A stretch of 64,000 nt of DNA. It comes from a virus. Positions 9,954 through 64,000 of the stretch are shown here, piece by piece. Every line of letters starts with the position of its first letter. Within the stretch, counting starts at the first letter, position 1. The notes beneath the pieces are model-generated. The model saw nothing but the letters and a program-made list of their open reading frames with translations. It did no database searches and was not told the DNA's origin. The DNA lies in the UHGV virus genome UHGV-1351569. One strand, 5' to 3'. Made by a program: the position numbers and the translations under genes.

Positions 9954-10427
9954 ATGTTATTGACTGGCAAATTATATAAAGAAGAAAAACAGAAATTTTA
10001 TGATGCGCAAAACGGTAAATGCTTAATTTGCCAACGAGAACTAAATCCTGATGTTCAAGCTAATCACCTTGACCATGACCATGAATTAAATGGACCAAAA
10101 GCAGGAAAGGTACGTGGATTGCTCTGTAATCTCTGTAATGCTGCAGAAGGTCAAATGAAGCATAAATTCAATCGTTCTGGCTTAAAGGGACAAGGTGTTG
10201 ATTATCTTGAATGGCTAGAAAATTTACTTACTTATTTAAAATCCGATTACACCCAAAATAATATTCACCCTAACTTCGTTGGAGATAAATCAAAGGAATT
10301 TTCTCGTTTAGGAAAAGAGGAAATGATGGCTGAGATGCTTCAAAGAGGATTTGAATATAATGAATCTGACACTAAAACACAATTAATAGCTTCATTTAAG
10401 AAGCAGCTTAGAAAGAGTTTAAAATGA
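9954..10427 (+). CDS. 49: Recombination endonuclease VII (Holliday junction resolvase), 157 aa
   Basis: MLLTGKLYKEEKQKFYDAQNGKCLICQ...HLDHDHELNG matches recalled T4 gp49; length identical. Confidence 0.9.
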   Translation: MLLTGKLYKEEKQKFYDAQNGKCLICQRELNPDVQANHLDHDHELNGPKAGKVRGLLCNLCNAAEGQMKHKFNRSGLKGQGVDYLEWLENLLTYLKSDYTQNNIHPNFVGDKSKEFSRLGKEEMMAEMLQRGFEYNESDTKTQLIASFKKQLRKSLK

Positions 10428-13286
10428 CAATTGAAAAAGAAATTGAAGGATTGATTCATAAAACTAATAAAGACCTTTTAAACGAGAATGCTAATAAAGA
10501 TTCTCGTGTTTTTCCAACTCAACGGGACCTTATGGCTGGTATTGTGTCTAAACACATTGCCAAAAATATGGTCCCGTCTTTTATTATGAAAGCGCATGAA
10601 AGCGGAATTATCCATTTCCATGATATTGATTATTCCCCTGCTCTTCCATTTACTAATTGCTGTTTAGTAGATTTAAAAGGAATGCTTGAAAACGGATTTA
10701 AGCTCGGTAATGCACAGATTGAAACTCCTAAATCAATCGGCGTTGCTACTGCAATTATGGCACAAATTACTGCACAGGTTGCTTCCCACCAATATGGCGG
10801 AACGACTTTTGCGAATGTAGATAAAGTACTTTCTCCTTATGTTAAACGCACCTATGCAAAACATATTGAGGATGCAGAAAAATGGCAAATCGCTGATGCG
10901 TTGAATTATGCTCAATCCAAAACAGAAAAAGATGTCTATGATGCATTCCAGGCGTATGAGTTAATTTAATTCAGGCTCATGTAAAACCGGTCTAAACGGG
11001 GAACCTCTCTAGTAGACAATCCCGTGCTAAATGTTCTTTTGAACTAAATGCCTAACGACTAACCGTGATGAATGTAGCGGTGTAGAATAGAAGCTAATGC
11101 TATTCGAAACGGCCGGCATCGAAAGATGAAGATATAGTCTAATCTGCATGGCGACATGCAGCAGTCATCTTGTATAAATAAGATTATCTTATGAATACGA
11201 GGTGAAACAATGAAATGGATAAAAAGACGTTGTACTAAAATAAAAGATAAAGACGCATTTACATACTTAGTTAAGTTTTCTAATGGCGACATTTATATCG
11301 GTTATAAAAAAGTTAGAACAATTAAAAACAAGCCCACAAACTGGAAAACTTACACAACGTCATCTAAGTATATAAATGAACGCTTAAAAACTGATACACC
11401 TACTAAATGGATAATTTTAAAAACATTTGATAGTTATAAAGACGCATTAAAACATGAAGAAGAGGTCATACGTAAATATTTTTATAGCAAAAAATGTTTA
11501 AATAAATCCATAGGCGGTAAAAAGTTTTATAAGCATCCGGATACTGAAGAACATATTCAAAAATTAAGAGATGCTCATAAGGGTAAAGTGTTATCCGAAT
11601 CTCATAAAAACAATATAAAATCTTCTGTAGCTGAATATTATGCTAAAAACGGAAGATCTAAGGAACATGTGCAAAATAATATCAATAGTCGAAAAAGTAA
11701 AAAACAAGTATCGATAAAGCTTAAAAATAAAACTTTTAGAAGTTTTAAAAAAGCGGCGGAATATTTAAATTGCACTGAAAGTGAAGTCGAAACTCATCCT
11801 CTTGTTTTGAGTATTAAGACTACTATTCATAAAGTTCCTGAATATGTGGTTGTTGACGGTATTAAGTATACGTCTTATATAGAAGCAGCTAAAGCGCTAA
11901 ATTTTCATCCTAGCACTATAAAAGAACGTTGCGTATCTATGGACTATCCAAATTTTGTTGTTTCATATAAACGGGCATGAATTTGCGACTCATGCCGAAT
12001 ATAATGATGAAGTAAATACACTTTTCAGCTCTAATGGACAAACGCCTTTTGTAACAATTACGTTTGGTACGGGAACTGACTGGACTGAACGAATGATTCA
12101 GAAAGCAATTCTGAAAAATCGTATTAAAGGTCTTGGTCGCGATGGGATAACTCCTATTTTCCCTAAGCTTGTTATGTTCGTTGAAGAAGGTGTTAATCTT
12201 TATAAAGATGACCCGAACTATGATATTAAACAGCTTGCTCTAGAGTGCGCAAGCAAAAGAATGTATCCTGACATCATTTCGGCTAAGAACAATAAAGCTA
12301 TCACCGGTTCATCTATTCCTGTTTCTCCAATGGGTTGCCGCAGTTTCTTGAGCGTATGGAAAGATTCGACTGGTAATGAAATTCTTGATGGACGTAATAA
12401 TCTTGGCGTTGTAACACTGAATCTTCCTCGCATCGCGTTAGATTCTTATATTGGAACACAGTTCAATGAACAGAAATTTGCCGAATTGTTCAATGAACGA
12501 ATGGATTTATGTTTTGAAGCTTTGATGTGTAGAATTAGTTCCTTAAAAGGAGTTAAAGCGACTGTTGCTCCTATTCTTTATCAAGAAGGTGCATTCGGGG
12601 TTCGTCTTAAACCAGATGACGACATAATTGAGTTATTTAAAAACGGTAGAAGTTCAGTGTCTTTGGGATACATTGGTATTCACGAATTGAATATTCTTGT
12701 CGGTCGTGATATTGGGCAGGAAATTTTGACTAAAATGAATGCTCATCTTAAGCAGTGGACTGAAAGAACCGGTTTTGCTTTTAGTTTGTATTCTACACCT
12801 GCTGAAAACCTGTGCTATCGCTTCTGTAAACTTGATACCGAAAAATATGGAAGTGTAAAGGATGTTACTGATAAAGGCTGGTACACTAACAGTTTCCATG
12901 TTTCAGTAGAAGAAAATATCACTCCGTTTGAAAAGATTTCTCGTGAAGCGCCATATCATTTCATTGCGACAGGTGGTCACATTTCTTATGTTGAACTTCC
13001 TGATATGAAAAATAACTTAAAAGGTCTTGAGGCTGTATGGGATTATGCTGCACAACATTTAGATTATTTTGGCGTTAACATGCCAGTAGATAAATGTTTT
13101 ACGTGTGGAAGTACCCATGAAATGACTCCTACTGAAAACGGGTTTGTTTGTTCTATTTGTGGAGAAACTGATCCTAAAAAGATGAACACAATAAGAAGAA
13201 CTTGTGGTTATTTGGGAAATCCGAACGAACGTGGATTTAATCTTGGCAAAAATAAAGAAATCATGCATAGGGTTAAACACCAATGA
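10424..13286 (+). CDS. nrdD: Anaerobic ribonucleotide reductase NrdD, interrupted by a group I intron (exon 1 10424..about 10961, exon 2 about 11995..13286)
   Basis: Exon 1 (181 codons) and exon 2 (C-terminal about 430 codons) match recalled T4 NrdD; frame breaks with TAA at 10967; splice points are inferred from the recalled 1033-nt T4 intron length. Confidence 0.8.
11173..11180 (+). promoter_or_regulatory. Late promoter box TATAAATA upstream of the intron ORF
   Basis: Exact TATAAATA about 30 nt upstream of the endonuclease ATG. Confidence 0.45.
11210..11980 (+). CDS. Intron-encoded GIY-YIG homing endonuclease (I-TevII-like), 256 aa
   Basis: N-terminal YLVKFSNGDIYIGYKK (GIY...YIG motif); sits inside the nrdD intron as I-TevII does in T4. 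Confidence 0.8.
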   Translation: MKWIKRRCTKIKDKDAFTYLVKFSNGDIYIGYKKVRTIKNKPTNWKTYTTSSKYINERLKTDTPTKWIILKTFDSYKDALKHEEEVIRKYFYSKKCLNKSIGGKKFYKHPDTEEHIQKLRDAHKGKVLSESHKNNIKSSVAEYYAKNGRSKEHVQNNINSRKSKKQVSIKLKNKTFRSFKKAAEYLNCTESEVETHPLVLSIKTTIHKVPEYVVVDGIKYTSYIEAAKALNFHPSTIKERCVSMDYPNFVVSYKRA

Positions 13287-15353: not shown

Positions 15354-15370
15354 GGGCTTCGGCCCTTTTT
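15353..15370 (+). terminator. Terminator hairpin AGGGC-TTCG-GCCCT plus T5
   Basis: GC stem, UUCG loop, T-run. Confidence 0.65.
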
Positions 15371-48876: not shown

Positions 48877-48928
48877 AGCTTTATGATTACCGGAGTATAA
48901 TATTCCCGAAACCAAACGAGGATAAGTG

Positions 48929-50746
48929 ATGATTAAGAATGAAATTAAAATTCTGAGCGATATTGAACATATCAAAAAGCGTAGCGGCATGTACATTGGT
49001 TCTTCTGCTAATGAAATGCATGAGCGCTTTCTGTTTGGTAAATGGGAAAGTGTTCAGTATGTACCTGGTCTTGTTAAGCTTATTGATGAAATTATCGATA
49101 ACTCAGTAGATGAAGGTATTCGTACTAAGTTTAAATTCGCGAATAAAATTAATGTTACTATTAAAAACAATCAAGTAACAGTTGAAGATAACGGTCGTGG
49201 TATTCCACAAGCGATGGTTAAAACACCTACTGGTGAAGAAATTCCTGGTCCTGTTGCCGCCTGGACTATTCCAAAAGCAGGTGGTAACTTTGGTGATGAT
49301 AAAGAACGCGTCACTGGCGGTATGAACGGTGTTGGTTCTAGTTTAACTAACATTTTTTCTGTGATGTTTGTCGGTGAAACTGGTGATGGTCAAAATAATA
49401 TTGTAGTTCGTTGTTCAAATGGCATGGAAAATAAATCGTGGGAAGATATTCCTGGAAAATGGAAAGGAACTCGCGTTACTTTCATTCCTGATTTTATGTC
49501 ATTTGAAACTAATGAGCTATCTCAGGTTTATCTTGACATTACACTAGATCGTCTCCAGACACTTGCAGTAGTTTATCCTGATATTCAATTTACCTTTAAT
49601 GGTAAAAAGGTTCAGGGTAATTTTAAGAAATATGCACGTCAATATGATGAGCATGCTATCGTTCAAGAACAAGAAAACTGTTCTATTGCGGTCGGTCGTT
49701 CACCTGATGGTTTTCGTCAATTAACGTACGTCAATAACATTCATACTAAGAATGGTGGCCATCATATTGACTGTGTTATGGATGATATTTGTGAAGACCT
49801 TATTCCACAAATCAAACGCAAGTTCAAAATTGATGTAACTAAAGCACGTGTTAAAGAATGTTTGACTATCGTTATGTTTGTTCGTGATATGAAAAACATG
49901 CGATTTGATTCTCAAACTAAAGAGCGTTTGACTTCTCCATTTGGTGAAATTCGCAGTCATATTCAGCTTGATGCTAAAAAGATTTCACGTGCTATTCTAA
50001 ATAATGAAGCAATTTTAATGCCAATTATTGAAGCTGCCTTGGCTCGTAAATTGGCGGCAGAAAAAGCAGCAGAAACTAAAGCAGCTAAAAAGGCTTCTAA
50101 AGCTAAGGTTCATAAACATATTAAAGCGAATCTTTGTGGTAAAGATGCTGACACTACTCTTTTCTTGACTGAGGGTGATTCTGCTATCGGATATCTTATT
50201 GATGTTCGTGATAAAGAACTTCATGGTGGTTATCCATTACGTGGTAAAGTTCTCAACAGTTGGGGTATGTCATATGCTGATATGCTTAAAAACAAAGAAC
50301 TGTTTGATATTTGCGCAATCACTGGATTAGTTCTTGGTGAAAAAGCCGAAAACTTGAATTATCATAATATCGCAATTATGACCGATGCTGACCACGATGG
50401 TCTAGGAAGCATTTATCCTTCTCTGCTCGGATTTTTTAGTAATTGGCCAGAATTGTTTGAACAAGGAAGAATTCGCTTTGTCAAAACTCCTGTAATCATC
50501 GCTCAGGTCGGTAAAAAACAAGAATGGTTTTATACAGTCGCTGAATATGAGAGTGCCAAAGATGCTCTACCTAAACATAGCATCCGTTATATTAAAGGAC
50601 TTGGCTCTTTGGAAAAATCTGAATATCGTGAGATGATTCAAAACCCAGTATATGATGTTGTTAAACTTCCTGAGAACTGGAAAGAGCTTTTTGAAATGCT
50701 CATGGGAGATAATGCTGACCTTCGTAAAGAATGGATGAGCCAGTAG
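48929..50746 (+). CDS. 39: DNA topoisomerase II large subunit (GyrB-like ATPase plus TOPRIM), unsplit, about 605 aa
   Basis: MIKNEIKILSDIEHIKKRSGMYIGS... matches recalled T4 gp39 N-terminus; a single continuous frame includes the C-terminal part that T4 encodes separately as gene 60. Confidence 0.9.
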   Translation: MIKNEIKILSDIEHIKKRSGMYIGSSANEMHERFLFGKWESVQYVPGLVKLIDEIIDNSVDEGIRTKFKFANKINVTIKNNQVTVEDNGRGIPQAMVKTPTGEEIPGPVAAWTIPKAGGNFGDDKERVTGGMNGVGSSLTNIFSVMFVGETGDGQNNIVVRCSNGMENKSWEDIPGKWKGTRVTFIPDFMSFETNELSQVYLDITLDRLQTLAVVYPDIQFTFNGKKVQGNFKKYARQYDEHAIVQEQENCSIAVGRSPDGFRQLTYVNNIHTKNGGHHIDCVMDDICEDLIPQIKRKFKIDVTKARVKECLTIVMFVRDMKNMRFDSQTKERLTSPFGEIRSHIQLDAKKISRAILNNEAILMPIIEAALARKLAAEKAAETKAAKKASKAKVHKHIKANLCGKDADTTLFLTEGDSAIGYLIDVRDKELHGGYPLRGKVLNSWGMSYADMLKNKELFDICAITGLVLGEKAENLNYHNIAIMTDADHDGLGSIYPSLLGFFSNWPELFEQGRIRFVKTPVIIAQVGKKQEWFYTVAEYESAKDALPKHSIRYIKGLGSLEKSEYREMIQNPVYDVVKLPENWKELFEMLMGDNADLRKEWMSQ

Positions 50747-61690: not shown

Positions 61691-62347
61691 TTATTTAGCC
61701 CTTCCTAATATTCTGGCCGCCTGAGCACATATTGATTCAAGGCGGTCATTACTTATATGATCATTTCTATACCAGTACATGGTTATCGTTCCAGCATAGA
61801 TATTATCCAAATTAAAATATGGACAACTGTACATGTAGTTTATTTCGGGAGTAGGCTTTTTAGTTGGTAAAAAAGCAAATTTTGAGTTGGAATAATAATG
61901 ACGTCCATTTAAATGAACTGTATATTCATCCATAGTTTTATCAACAGGATATCCTCCAAGTGATTTTTCACTTATTGTTGAAGGTAATTTTCCTTCGTAT
62001 GCTATAATATCAACAAAATAGTTTAAGTTTTTAGGGCGGAAAGAATATACCGCACTAAAGTCTGCCTCAGATGATATATGAACTATCTGGAGTTGTTCCA
62101 GGGCGACAGATTCAAAGCGTGCATTTCTTTCCTTTTCAATAATTTCACTGTATGTTTCATACTTTGATTGCTTATAGTACTCAAAGAAACTATCTCCCCT
62201 ATACCAAACAATCGCCATCATAAATAAAAGAATTACGACAGCTACCCGGGAAGCAAGAACTTTCCCGGTAGCGTTATCTTTGAACAAGCGATCTAGAACA
62301 CCAAACAGAATATCAGAGGGCGAAAATGATATTCTAGGTGCTGCCAT
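61691..62347 (-). CDS. t: Holin T, 218 aa
   Basis: MAAPRISFSPSDILFGVLDRLFKDNATGKVLASR... matches recalled T4 holin; strong AAGGAGG RBS; single TM segment. Confidence 0.92.
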   Translation of the reverse strand: MAAPRISFSPSDILFGVLDRLFKDNATGKVLASRVAVVILLFMMAIVWYRGDSFFEYYKQSKYETYSEIIEKERNARFESVALEQLQIVHISSEADFSAVYSFRPKNLNYFVDIIAYEGKLPSTISEKSLGGYPVDKTMDEYTVHLNGRHYYSNSKFAFLPTKKPTPEINYMYSCPYFNLDNIYAGTITMYWYRNDHISNDRLESICAQAARILGRAK

Positions 62348-62378: not shown

Positions 62379-63185
62379 TTATACTCTTGGACCATATATT
62401 GCTCCAACATTTTGCCATGTTGGAGCAGACCCTATGACAGCATAACCAGCAGCTCCGCCGGCACCGACTTTGAGTACTTTACCTCCGTCATACCAGGCAT
62501 TTTGCCCATTTGCGCCAGCATCACCACCCTGGCCAGAGTGAGCATTACCATAATTATAACCACCTCCTGGGCCATCATAAGAAGCTGCGCCGCCGGAATA
62601 ACCTCCGCCTCCTCCTGGGCCAAATGGTCTTCCTCCACCACCACCAATATCTTGCCAATTTGCACCAGAGTGAGGACGATAAGCGATACCGCCTCCACCT
62701 CCACCTCCACCGCAAATTACTCCACCGTTATTAATTCTTAATCGTCCACCGATGTCATTTTGAATACAATGACCACCTTGTTGACCATTACCATCTCCGC
62801 CAGAATGAGTCCATCCACCTTGTCCACCTCTACCCCACATATGGACGCCTCCACCAATATTCAATTGAACATATTCATTAGGTGTATCTCCATACATAAA
62901 GAATAAAGGAACGTCTCTAGAATATGATACCAAATTTCCGGTAATATTAAACACTATAGGTGCACTACCTGCCTCAAAACATCTATCTCGGAACCATTGA
63001 CCATTGAAGTTATGGTCCGCTCCAAGGGTGTGAATTACTTCAACAGATCGACCTATCATATTACTCATCCAGAACGGAATGCCCATTCTTAATCGTTGGG
63101 CCGCACCACCCATCCAATTTTGTCCTGTATTAACTACTGCAGACCATCCTACCCACGGTCCTTCAACTGCCATATAAACCTCCAA
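62379..63185 (-). CDS. 38: gp38 tail-fibre adhesin, T2/T6 type with glycine-rich motifs, 268 aa
   Basis: Poly-Gly blocks ([27 protein letters not shown]) separated by variable segments; sits between t and 37. Confidence 0.75.
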
Positions 63186-63200
63186 GGGGCCGAAGCCCCT
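63186..63200 (-). terminator. Hairpin GGGGC-TTCG-GCCCC between gene 37 and gene 38 (function uncertain)
   Basis: Stable hairpin 2 nt upstream of the gene 38 RBS; may stabilise or attenuate the transcript. Confidence 0.35.
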
Positions 63201-63204
63201 CTTA

Positions 63205-64000
63205 TTATTTTAACAATGATTTAACTAATGCTTTAAGTTCTTCAATTTCTGATTTAAGTTCCGCAATTTCTGCAGTATGCTCATTGATTGCAGCTGTATT
63301 TAAACCAATTACACCGTTATAGTTCAAACGAAGTAAAGCTTCGCCATCAGGGTCACCTTCAACTAATTCAGGTAAAATAGCTTGAACTTCTTGAGCTATC
63401 AAACCTGCGTTAGGTTCCCATTTCTGATTGCCTTCTTCATCTAGGCCTCGCTTCTGCATATAAGTGTAACCGTTAATTTTAGAAAGCTTCTGAGAAGCAT
63501 TTTCAAATTTAACAAGGTCTTTTTTAACGCGAATATCAGAACGGACATAAACATCACGGACAAACGTTGAATAACTATCATTTGCCTGAACGAGATGCCC
63601 ATGAGAAACGATAGCTCTTCCAGTTTCTGTCCAAAAAGCACCGGTTGAATCCCAAAGCCCAGGATGAGATTGATAGCCTGCTCCCCAGTTTGCAATATGT
63701 ATACCATTGGCAACCATATTGATTCGGCCGTCACCACCATGAACTAATCCAGTATCATTATCACCAATAACAAGACATGGTCCAGTCCACACCGGGTCAC
63801 CACCGCCAGCTGATAGTCTTGCTCCAGTTTGAACCATATTAGGAGCATACAGAACTCCATTGTGGTGGAATTCATAGATAGCTTGCGGATCGCTAGCATT
63901 TTCCTGGTTACCAACACGGATAATAGCCTGAGCCCATTGGTTAGTGGTACGGCGCATACCAAAATCTACGCCTGATACGTATCCTTCGTTAGTAATGACA
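63205..64000 (-). CDS. 37: Long tail fibre distal subunit gp37, C-terminal part (partial; continues beyond the window)
   Basis: Frame stays open to the window edge upstream of the first Met; C-terminus has an intramolecular-chaperone-like motif ([10 protein letters not shown]...) and terminal coiled coil. Confidence 0.8.

Follow-up and report, generated by a model that had tools for sequence, protein, structure and literature searches.

The end of the window, as we call the whole 64-kb stretch of DNA analysed here, very probably encodes the distal end of the long tail fibre of a Tequatrovirus, a T4-like coliphage, in the form of a host-recognition module like those of T2, T6, RB32 and S16, with the E. 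coli outer-membrane protein OmpA as its most likely receptor. The assignment draws on what was observed in the window itself, namely family membership, conserved residues for catalysis and docking, the order of the genes, purifying selection and loop identity. By analogy with the homologues, from which cleavage, stoichiometry and receptor are taken, gp37 would be synthesised with a C-terminal 111-residue Peptidase S74 intramolecular chaperone, and its terminal helices would trimerise and nucleate the folding of the beta-helical shaft. A Ser154-Lys159 dyad would then cleave the chain at the Arg153/Ser154 bond and so free the chaperone. The exposed DVYVR face would be capped by one gp38, plugged in via its N-terminal W7, W20 and W35, with a presumed gp37:gp38 stoichiometry of 3:1, and the rest of gp38 would form a beta-helix with a polyglycine-II sandwich made from glycine-rich motifs, the hypervariable loops between these motifs binding the receptor.

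DNA searches assigned the phage to Tequatrovirus, with the last 25 kb of the window sharing ∼96% identity with many isolates but matching none exactly, and the nearest relative of the 2.4-kb fibre module was vB_EcoM_CE1 (CE1 below; 94.4% DNA identity). Over the last 2.3 kb, the minus strand carries in order the 3' end of gene 37, a hairpin, a GGAGG, gene 38 and holin gene t (Table 1). The placement of gene 38 between gene 37 and t is common to T2, T6, S16, RB32, FL08, AV119 and CE1, and T4 shares with the window both the gene 37-38-t order and the fibre position. Genes 37 (visible part) and 38 are intact, with conserved C-termini. The plus strand carries asiA, identified by its translation and in agreement with the T4 annotation. 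Judging by the gene order in T4, T2, T6 and S16, the next ORFs would be motA and gene 52.

Table 1. Features at the fibre-gene end of the window (gp37 residues are numbered within the 264-residue fragment inside the window, which is the last 264 residues of gp37 only).
Feature	Position	Strand	Basis or remark
Holin gene t, 218 aa, directly downstream of gene 38	61691..62347	-	PF11031 (Phage_holin_T), E 2e-117
Gene 38, tail-fibre adhesin, 264 aa + stop	62379..63173	-	PF05268, PF21721, 9V85, 6F45_D
gp38 glycine-rich motifs alternating with hypervariable segments; receptor-specificity core, residues 106-246	62436..62858	-	Gly runs; conserved blocks; 133/135 identical to RB32
gp38 N-terminal attachment domain, residues 1-47, with W7/W20/W35	63033..63173	-	Gp38_N over residues 1-40; Trp conservation
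GGAGG Shine-Dalgarno of gene 38	63179..63183	-	Direct reading; 6 bases upstream of ATG 63173
GGGGCUUCGGCCCC hairpin, 14 nt, UUCG tetraloop, between gene 37 stop and gene 38 ribosome-binding site	63186..63199	-	Sequence; fold
Gene 37 3' end (long tail fibre distal subunit)	63205..64000	-	ORF and translation; 264 codons + stop visible, gene continues past the window
gp37 C-terminal heptad-repeat helix, ∼residues 231-264, predicted trimeric coiled coil	63208..63309	-	Heptad pattern; MYRF ICA helix alignment
gp37 intramolecular chaperone / Peptidase_S74 domain, 111 aa; release predicted once the trimer has folded	63208..63540	-	PF13884
gp37 10-residue motif, residues 152-161, spanning R153/S154	63517..63546	-	Position; alignment
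gp37 part predicted to be kept in the mature fibre, residues 1-153, ending DVYVR	63541..64000	-	Aligns with S16 gp37 tip in 6F45
Overlapping ORF, 153 aa	62280..62741	+	ORF list
Overlapping ORF, 92 aa	62432..62710	-	ORF list
Overlapping ORF	62510..62734	+	ORF list
Overlapping ORF	62575..62715	-	ORF list

The gene 38 product matched the Pfam family GP38 (PF05268; 232 bits against a cut-off of 25, E 9e-69, full profile 1-218) and, with residues 1-40, Gp38_N (PF21721; 73 bits against a cut-off of 25, E 2e-20), as well as the solved receptor-binding domain of PP01 gp38 (9V85; E 1.3e-73) and the solved S16 gp38 (6F45_D; E 5.1e-51, residues 1-261). Match scores at this level, together with that of the gp37 tail described below (E 3e-13), indicate that the gp38 and gp37 features are not due to chance. 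Overall identity of gp38 was 70% to T6, 50% to S16 and 46–48% to T2, and T6 and T2 carry the same adhesin class and the same gp37 S74 domain as the window. The adhesin-type architecture that the initial annotation had claimed for gp38 is borne out by these family and structure matches and by the homology to T6 and T2. The gene name and the position between gene 37 and t, both the same as in T4, might instead suggest a T4-like assembly chaperone that is absent from the virion, a reading that we consider hardly credible: BLASTP found no similarity between the window gp38 and T4 gp38 (best E 0.78; the 24% identity of the pair is the product of a forced alignment), T4 gp38 matched no Pfam family, including GP38, when run as a control, and the T4 RefSeq annotation calls T4 gp38 and the adhesin-type gp38 unrelated, whereas the window protein matches the adhesin families as well as two adhesins of known structure. 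The alignment that had been proposed as a check for the short T4 chaperone type thus speaks for an adhesin. T4 differs from the window in both proteins: its gp38 is a chaperone unrelated to the window adhesin, and its gp37, which has no S74 domain, bears a receptor-binding tip of its own with Collar and fibre repeats.

Within gp38, the N-terminal attachment domain contains three tryptophans, W7, W20 and W35, that were invariant in alignments with S16, T6 and T2. In S16, three tryptophans anchor gp38 in pockets of the trimeric gp37 (PMC6851490), and the three window residues correspond to these docking tryptophans. The window protein has a fourth tryptophan near them, at residue 10 (PWVGWSA; 63144-63146, minus strand), a position occupied by Trp also in AV119 and by Ser in CE1, FL08, RB32, T6 and S16.

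The remainder of the protein is rich in glycine, which makes up 38% of residues 95-232 versus 12% of residues 1-94. Runs of at least two glycines lie at nt 62454-62855 and include one G8 (62688-62711) and two G5, so that the poly-Gly blocks with intervening variable segments noted earlier at ∼62480-62890 were real and their coordinates about right. The motifs GRGGxGG, G8, GGGGGRPFG, GxGG and GGAAG were invariant in alignments with T2, T6 and S16, while the segments between them varied. In S16 gp38, the glycine-rich motifs build a polyglycine-II sandwich of three layers, with the variable loops projecting from it (PMC6851490). The S16 gp37-gp38 complex (PDB 6F45; Dunne et al. 2018), with an S74 domain cleaved before Ser, docking via three tryptophans and a polyglycine-II sandwich that includes a G8 helix, has the same architecture as the window module. 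However, the window gp37 tip has a ∼12-residue insertion relative to S16, and S16 targets Salmonella OmpC, whereas OmpA is predicted for the window.

The start of gene 38 required a correction. The initial annotation gave gp38 a length of 268 aa, which is that of a mechanical ORF (62379..63185) opening at a TTG that overlaps the Shine-Dalgarno; we rejected this start in favour of the ATG at 63173 behind the GGAGG, which yields a protein of 264 aa starting MAVEG and matches the annotation in FL08, AV119 and CE1. Upstream of the ribosome-binding site, the hairpin between genes 37 and 38 folded at -15.8 kcal/mol (z-score -1.9), and its position is conserved in T4, T2, FL08, AV119 and CE1. A terminator was considered and rejected, since no T-run follows the hairpin and its fold z-score is only -1.9; it is a conserved intercistronic UUCG hairpin. 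In all, the window has seven C(UUCG)G tetraloop hairpins with a G/C clamp shortly after stop codons, at 15354, 18993, 23703, 25872, 54143 and 54371 on the plus strand and at 63186-63199 on the minus strand, and we take them to be the stable hairpins well known from between the cistrons of T-even phages. In other frames or on the opposite strand, the glycine-rich stretch of gene 38 is overlapped by several ORFs of 46–153 aa (Table 1), which look like by-products of GGN/NCC-rich repeats rather than genes.

The C-terminus of gp37 matched Peptidase_S74 (PF13884) at 50.2 bits (cut-off 22; E 3e-13) over profile positions 1-57 of 58 and residues 154-213 of the fragment. As controls, the gp37 tails of T2, T6 and RB32 matched the same family, while that of T4 had no PF13884 match and showed only Collar and fibre repeats. 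The gp37 fragment as a whole matched the S16 gp37 chain 6F45_A (E 8e-44) and was 89–91% identical to gp37 of CE1, FL08 and AV119, and identity of the chaperone domain was 100% to CE1, 56% to S16, 35% to T2 and 32% to T6. Across the window, CE1, FL08, AV119, S16, T2 and T6, the pattern S-D-x-R-x-K was invariant (7/7), and DVYVR^SDIRVKK of the window aligned with DLNVS^SDRRIKK of S16. S16 gp37 is reported to remove its own last 113 residues by autocleavage at this site, which exposes the docking face for gp38 (PMC7917993), and cleavage of gp37 before capping by gp38 is likewise reported for T2 and T6 (PMC3157838).

A profile built from the seven gp37 tails (118 positions) and searched against the PDB found four solved chains: S16 gp37 (E 7.5e-52), the MYRF ICA domain 7DC3 (E 6.6e-10, profile positions 8-115 of 118, nearly full length), the phage tail-fibre chain 8JOV (E 4e-7) and the released GA-1 neck-appendage chaperone domain 3GUD (E 1.6e-3). 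S154 aligned with the first residue of 3GUD and with A49 of 7DC3, which is the MYRF S587A position, and K159 aligned with K54 of 7DC3 (MYRF K592). In MYRF, S587 and K592 form a catalytic dyad equivalent to S911/K916 of the endosialidase endoNF, cleavage falls just before the Ser, and a C-terminal triple coiled coil of the ICA domain drives trimerisation (PMC8326128). By analogy, we predict that gp37 would cleave itself between R153 and S154 with S154/K159 as the dyad, releasing 111 residues, and that the resulting DVYVR end would be the docking face for gp38, the role of the last five residues being taken from PMC7917993. The profile alignment extends through the C-terminal helix of the MYRF ICA domain, and in the best register the last ∼34–40 residues of gp37 have I/L/V at 8 of 11 a/d heptad positions, compared with 1–6 in other registers. 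The motif followed by a terminal coiled coil that had been read from the sequence was therefore confirmed, with the motif at 63517-63546 and the 8/11 heptad count, and the suggested resemblance to Ser-Lys autoproteolytic chaperone domains held as well, given the PF13884 match, the 7DC3, 8JOV and 3GUD matches and the Ser and Lys in register. A single-sequence AlphaFold2 model of the last 131 gp37 residues was almost all helix and of low confidence (pLDDT 52.7, pTM 0.30), and support for the chaperone fold consequently comes only from sequence homology.

Comparison with CE1 showed that gp38 and the chaperone domain are under purifying selection, which is strict for the latter. gp38 had 28 synonymous and 6 non-synonymous differences (dS 0.166, dN 0.010, dN/dS ∼0.06), the chaperone domain had 8 synonymous and 0 non-synonymous differences (dS 0.12, dN 0, dN/dS 0), and the retained gp37 shaft, which differs by ∼10% between CE1 and the window, was more divergent than its neighbours (dN 0.10). 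This pattern bears on the idea that the S74-like domain is a non-cleaving relic kept on the fibre, with gp38 attaching otherwise or not at all, to which the uninformative single-sequence structure model would lend some room. Such a relic seems very unlikely to us, as it is opposed by the chaperone domain's lack of amino acid change relative to CE1, by the invariance of the motif's Ser, Asp, Arg and Lys, by the conserved docking tryptophans of gp38 and by the S16 domain, 56% identical, for which cleavage is reported (PMC7917993). We thus retain a cleavable chaperone domain as the predicted state of the window gp37.

For the receptor, we compared gp38 domain by domain, taking residues 1-47 as attachment and residues 106-240 as the core of glycine-rich motifs and hypervariable segments. 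RB32 was 60% identical to the window in the attachment domain and 99% (133/135) in the core, CE1 94% and 99%, FL08 94% and 93%, and AV119 91% and 93%, the FL08 and AV119 cores having 125–126 of 135 residues identical to the window. Corresponding values were 57% and 57% for T6 and 47% and 47% for T2. Over residues 48-264, the window and RB32 were identical at 214 of 217 positions, a stretch that includes all hypervariable segments, and the three differences were N172K, Y228H and A258V, of which N172K and Y228H lie in or next to hypervariable loops. The gp38 of RB32/RB33 is dependent on OmpA and LPS (Trojet et al. 2011, PMC3157838). For RB32, OmpA is indispensable and LPS composition matters, and moving the RB32 hypervariable-segment block into RB5 also moves this specificity (PMC3157838). 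FL08 and AV119, whose gp38 is 94–95% identical overall to that of the window, do not infect when ompA is deleted, and are classed as broad "type 1" OmpA binders (Lutz et al. 2025, PMC12032242). Their attachment-domain type, gp37 tip and chaperone domain are as in the window, and the arginine of "IAYR" and the aspartate of "GGDAG" are conserved; these two residues should be R165 and D217 of PMC12032242, a match made by position only, with the numbering unmapped. The FL08/AV119 core differs from the window by ∼10 substitutions (including G108I, V110A, P167V, D200V, G201A, N207Q, A221G and Y228S), and the proteins differ by one residue in length.

Because the gp38 loops are virtually those of RB32 and close to those of the OmpA-dependent FL08 and AV119, OmpA is predicted as the receptor and is, on loop identity, most likely the protein recognised, rather than Tsx or FadL/OmpF; sensitivity to LPS core composition is possibly present alongside. 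Recognition of Tsx, as in T6, or of FadL/OmpF, as in T2, we regard as quite unlikely. It could appeal to the 70% overall identity to T6 gp38, to the finding that Tsx binders, rather than type 2 OmpA binders, are the nearer phylogenetic neighbours of type 1 OmpA adhesins (Lutz et al., PMC12032242), and to few point changes being enough to alter gp38 specificity (PMC3157838), but core identity falls to 57% for T6 and 47% for T2 against 99% for RB32 and 93% for FL08/AV119, and every variable segment of T6 differs from the window in both length and sequence. The "T2/T6-type" label that the module had first been given is hence appropriate for its class, an adhesin gp38 with an S74 gp37, and not for its receptor segments, which are of the RB32 (OmpA) type. 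A literature search for receptor data on the close relatives KIT03 and wV7 returned nothing useful.

In gp38 adhesins, host range is known to shift on single changes within hypervariable segments. There is a small chance that the substitutions at N172, Y228 and W10 shift the OmpA loop variants or the enterobacterial hosts recognised, and if they did, host range would not be predictable from RB32, FL08 or AV119. With OmpA kept as the most likely receptor, the fibre locus matters for annotation and host-range prediction only: the phage can be annotated as having, in contrast to T4, a cleavable gp37 together with an adhesin-type gp38, and its receptor, OmpA perhaps with LPS dependence, becomes predictable via near-identity to characterised adhesins.

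Sequences nearly identical to the window gp38 are common, with more than 20 database phages at least 95% identical. The Escherichia phages CE1, Sa45lw, KIT03, wV7, SH7 and HY03 were 96–98% identical over the full length (98% for CE1 and Sa45lw), and CE1, which has the same chaperone domain, gene order and intercistronic hairpin as the window, differed in gp38 by five residue changes (E4T, W10S, V46I, N172K and A258V). T6 gp37 is without the ∼90 residues before the cleavage site that the window has, and RB32, for all its likeness in the gp38 core, has a T6-type gp37 tip and chaperone domain, unlike the window. The type of attachment domain thus tracks the type of gp37 tip and chaperone, S16-like in the window, CE1 and FL08 and T6-like in RB32. 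This pairing is known modular mosaicism, and exchange at the locus has been described (PMC3157838). The module, its mechanism and its structures are already known, there is nothing new in the window locus, and the fibre module raises no new question. Descriptions of the module and its structure, of the self-cleaving chaperone domain and of what the variable loops do go back to the 1980s, and structures followed in 2018 and 2026.

Elsewhere in the window, the topoisomerase II large subunit is encoded by one 606-aa ORF (48926-50746, plus strand) with HATPase_c, DNA_gyraseB and TOPRIM_C domains. In T4, this subunit is split into genes 39 and 60, with translational bypass, and the split with bypass appears to be absent from the window phage. 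An ARAGORN scan of all 64 kb (1-64000) turned up no tRNA genes, and the only Rfam match at gathering score was a group I intron (RF00028, 75 bits, 10930-11161). The intron lies between the exons of nrdD (anaerobic ribonucleotide reductase), which is split at 10424-13286 on the plus strand into an exon 1 ORF (10424-10969) and an exon 2 ORF (11955-13286), both matching Pfam NRDD and the second additionally Gly_radical. The intron also contains a GIY-YIG/NUMOD1 homing-endonuclease ORF (11210-11980), and resembles the T4 nrdD (sunY) intron with I-TevII.
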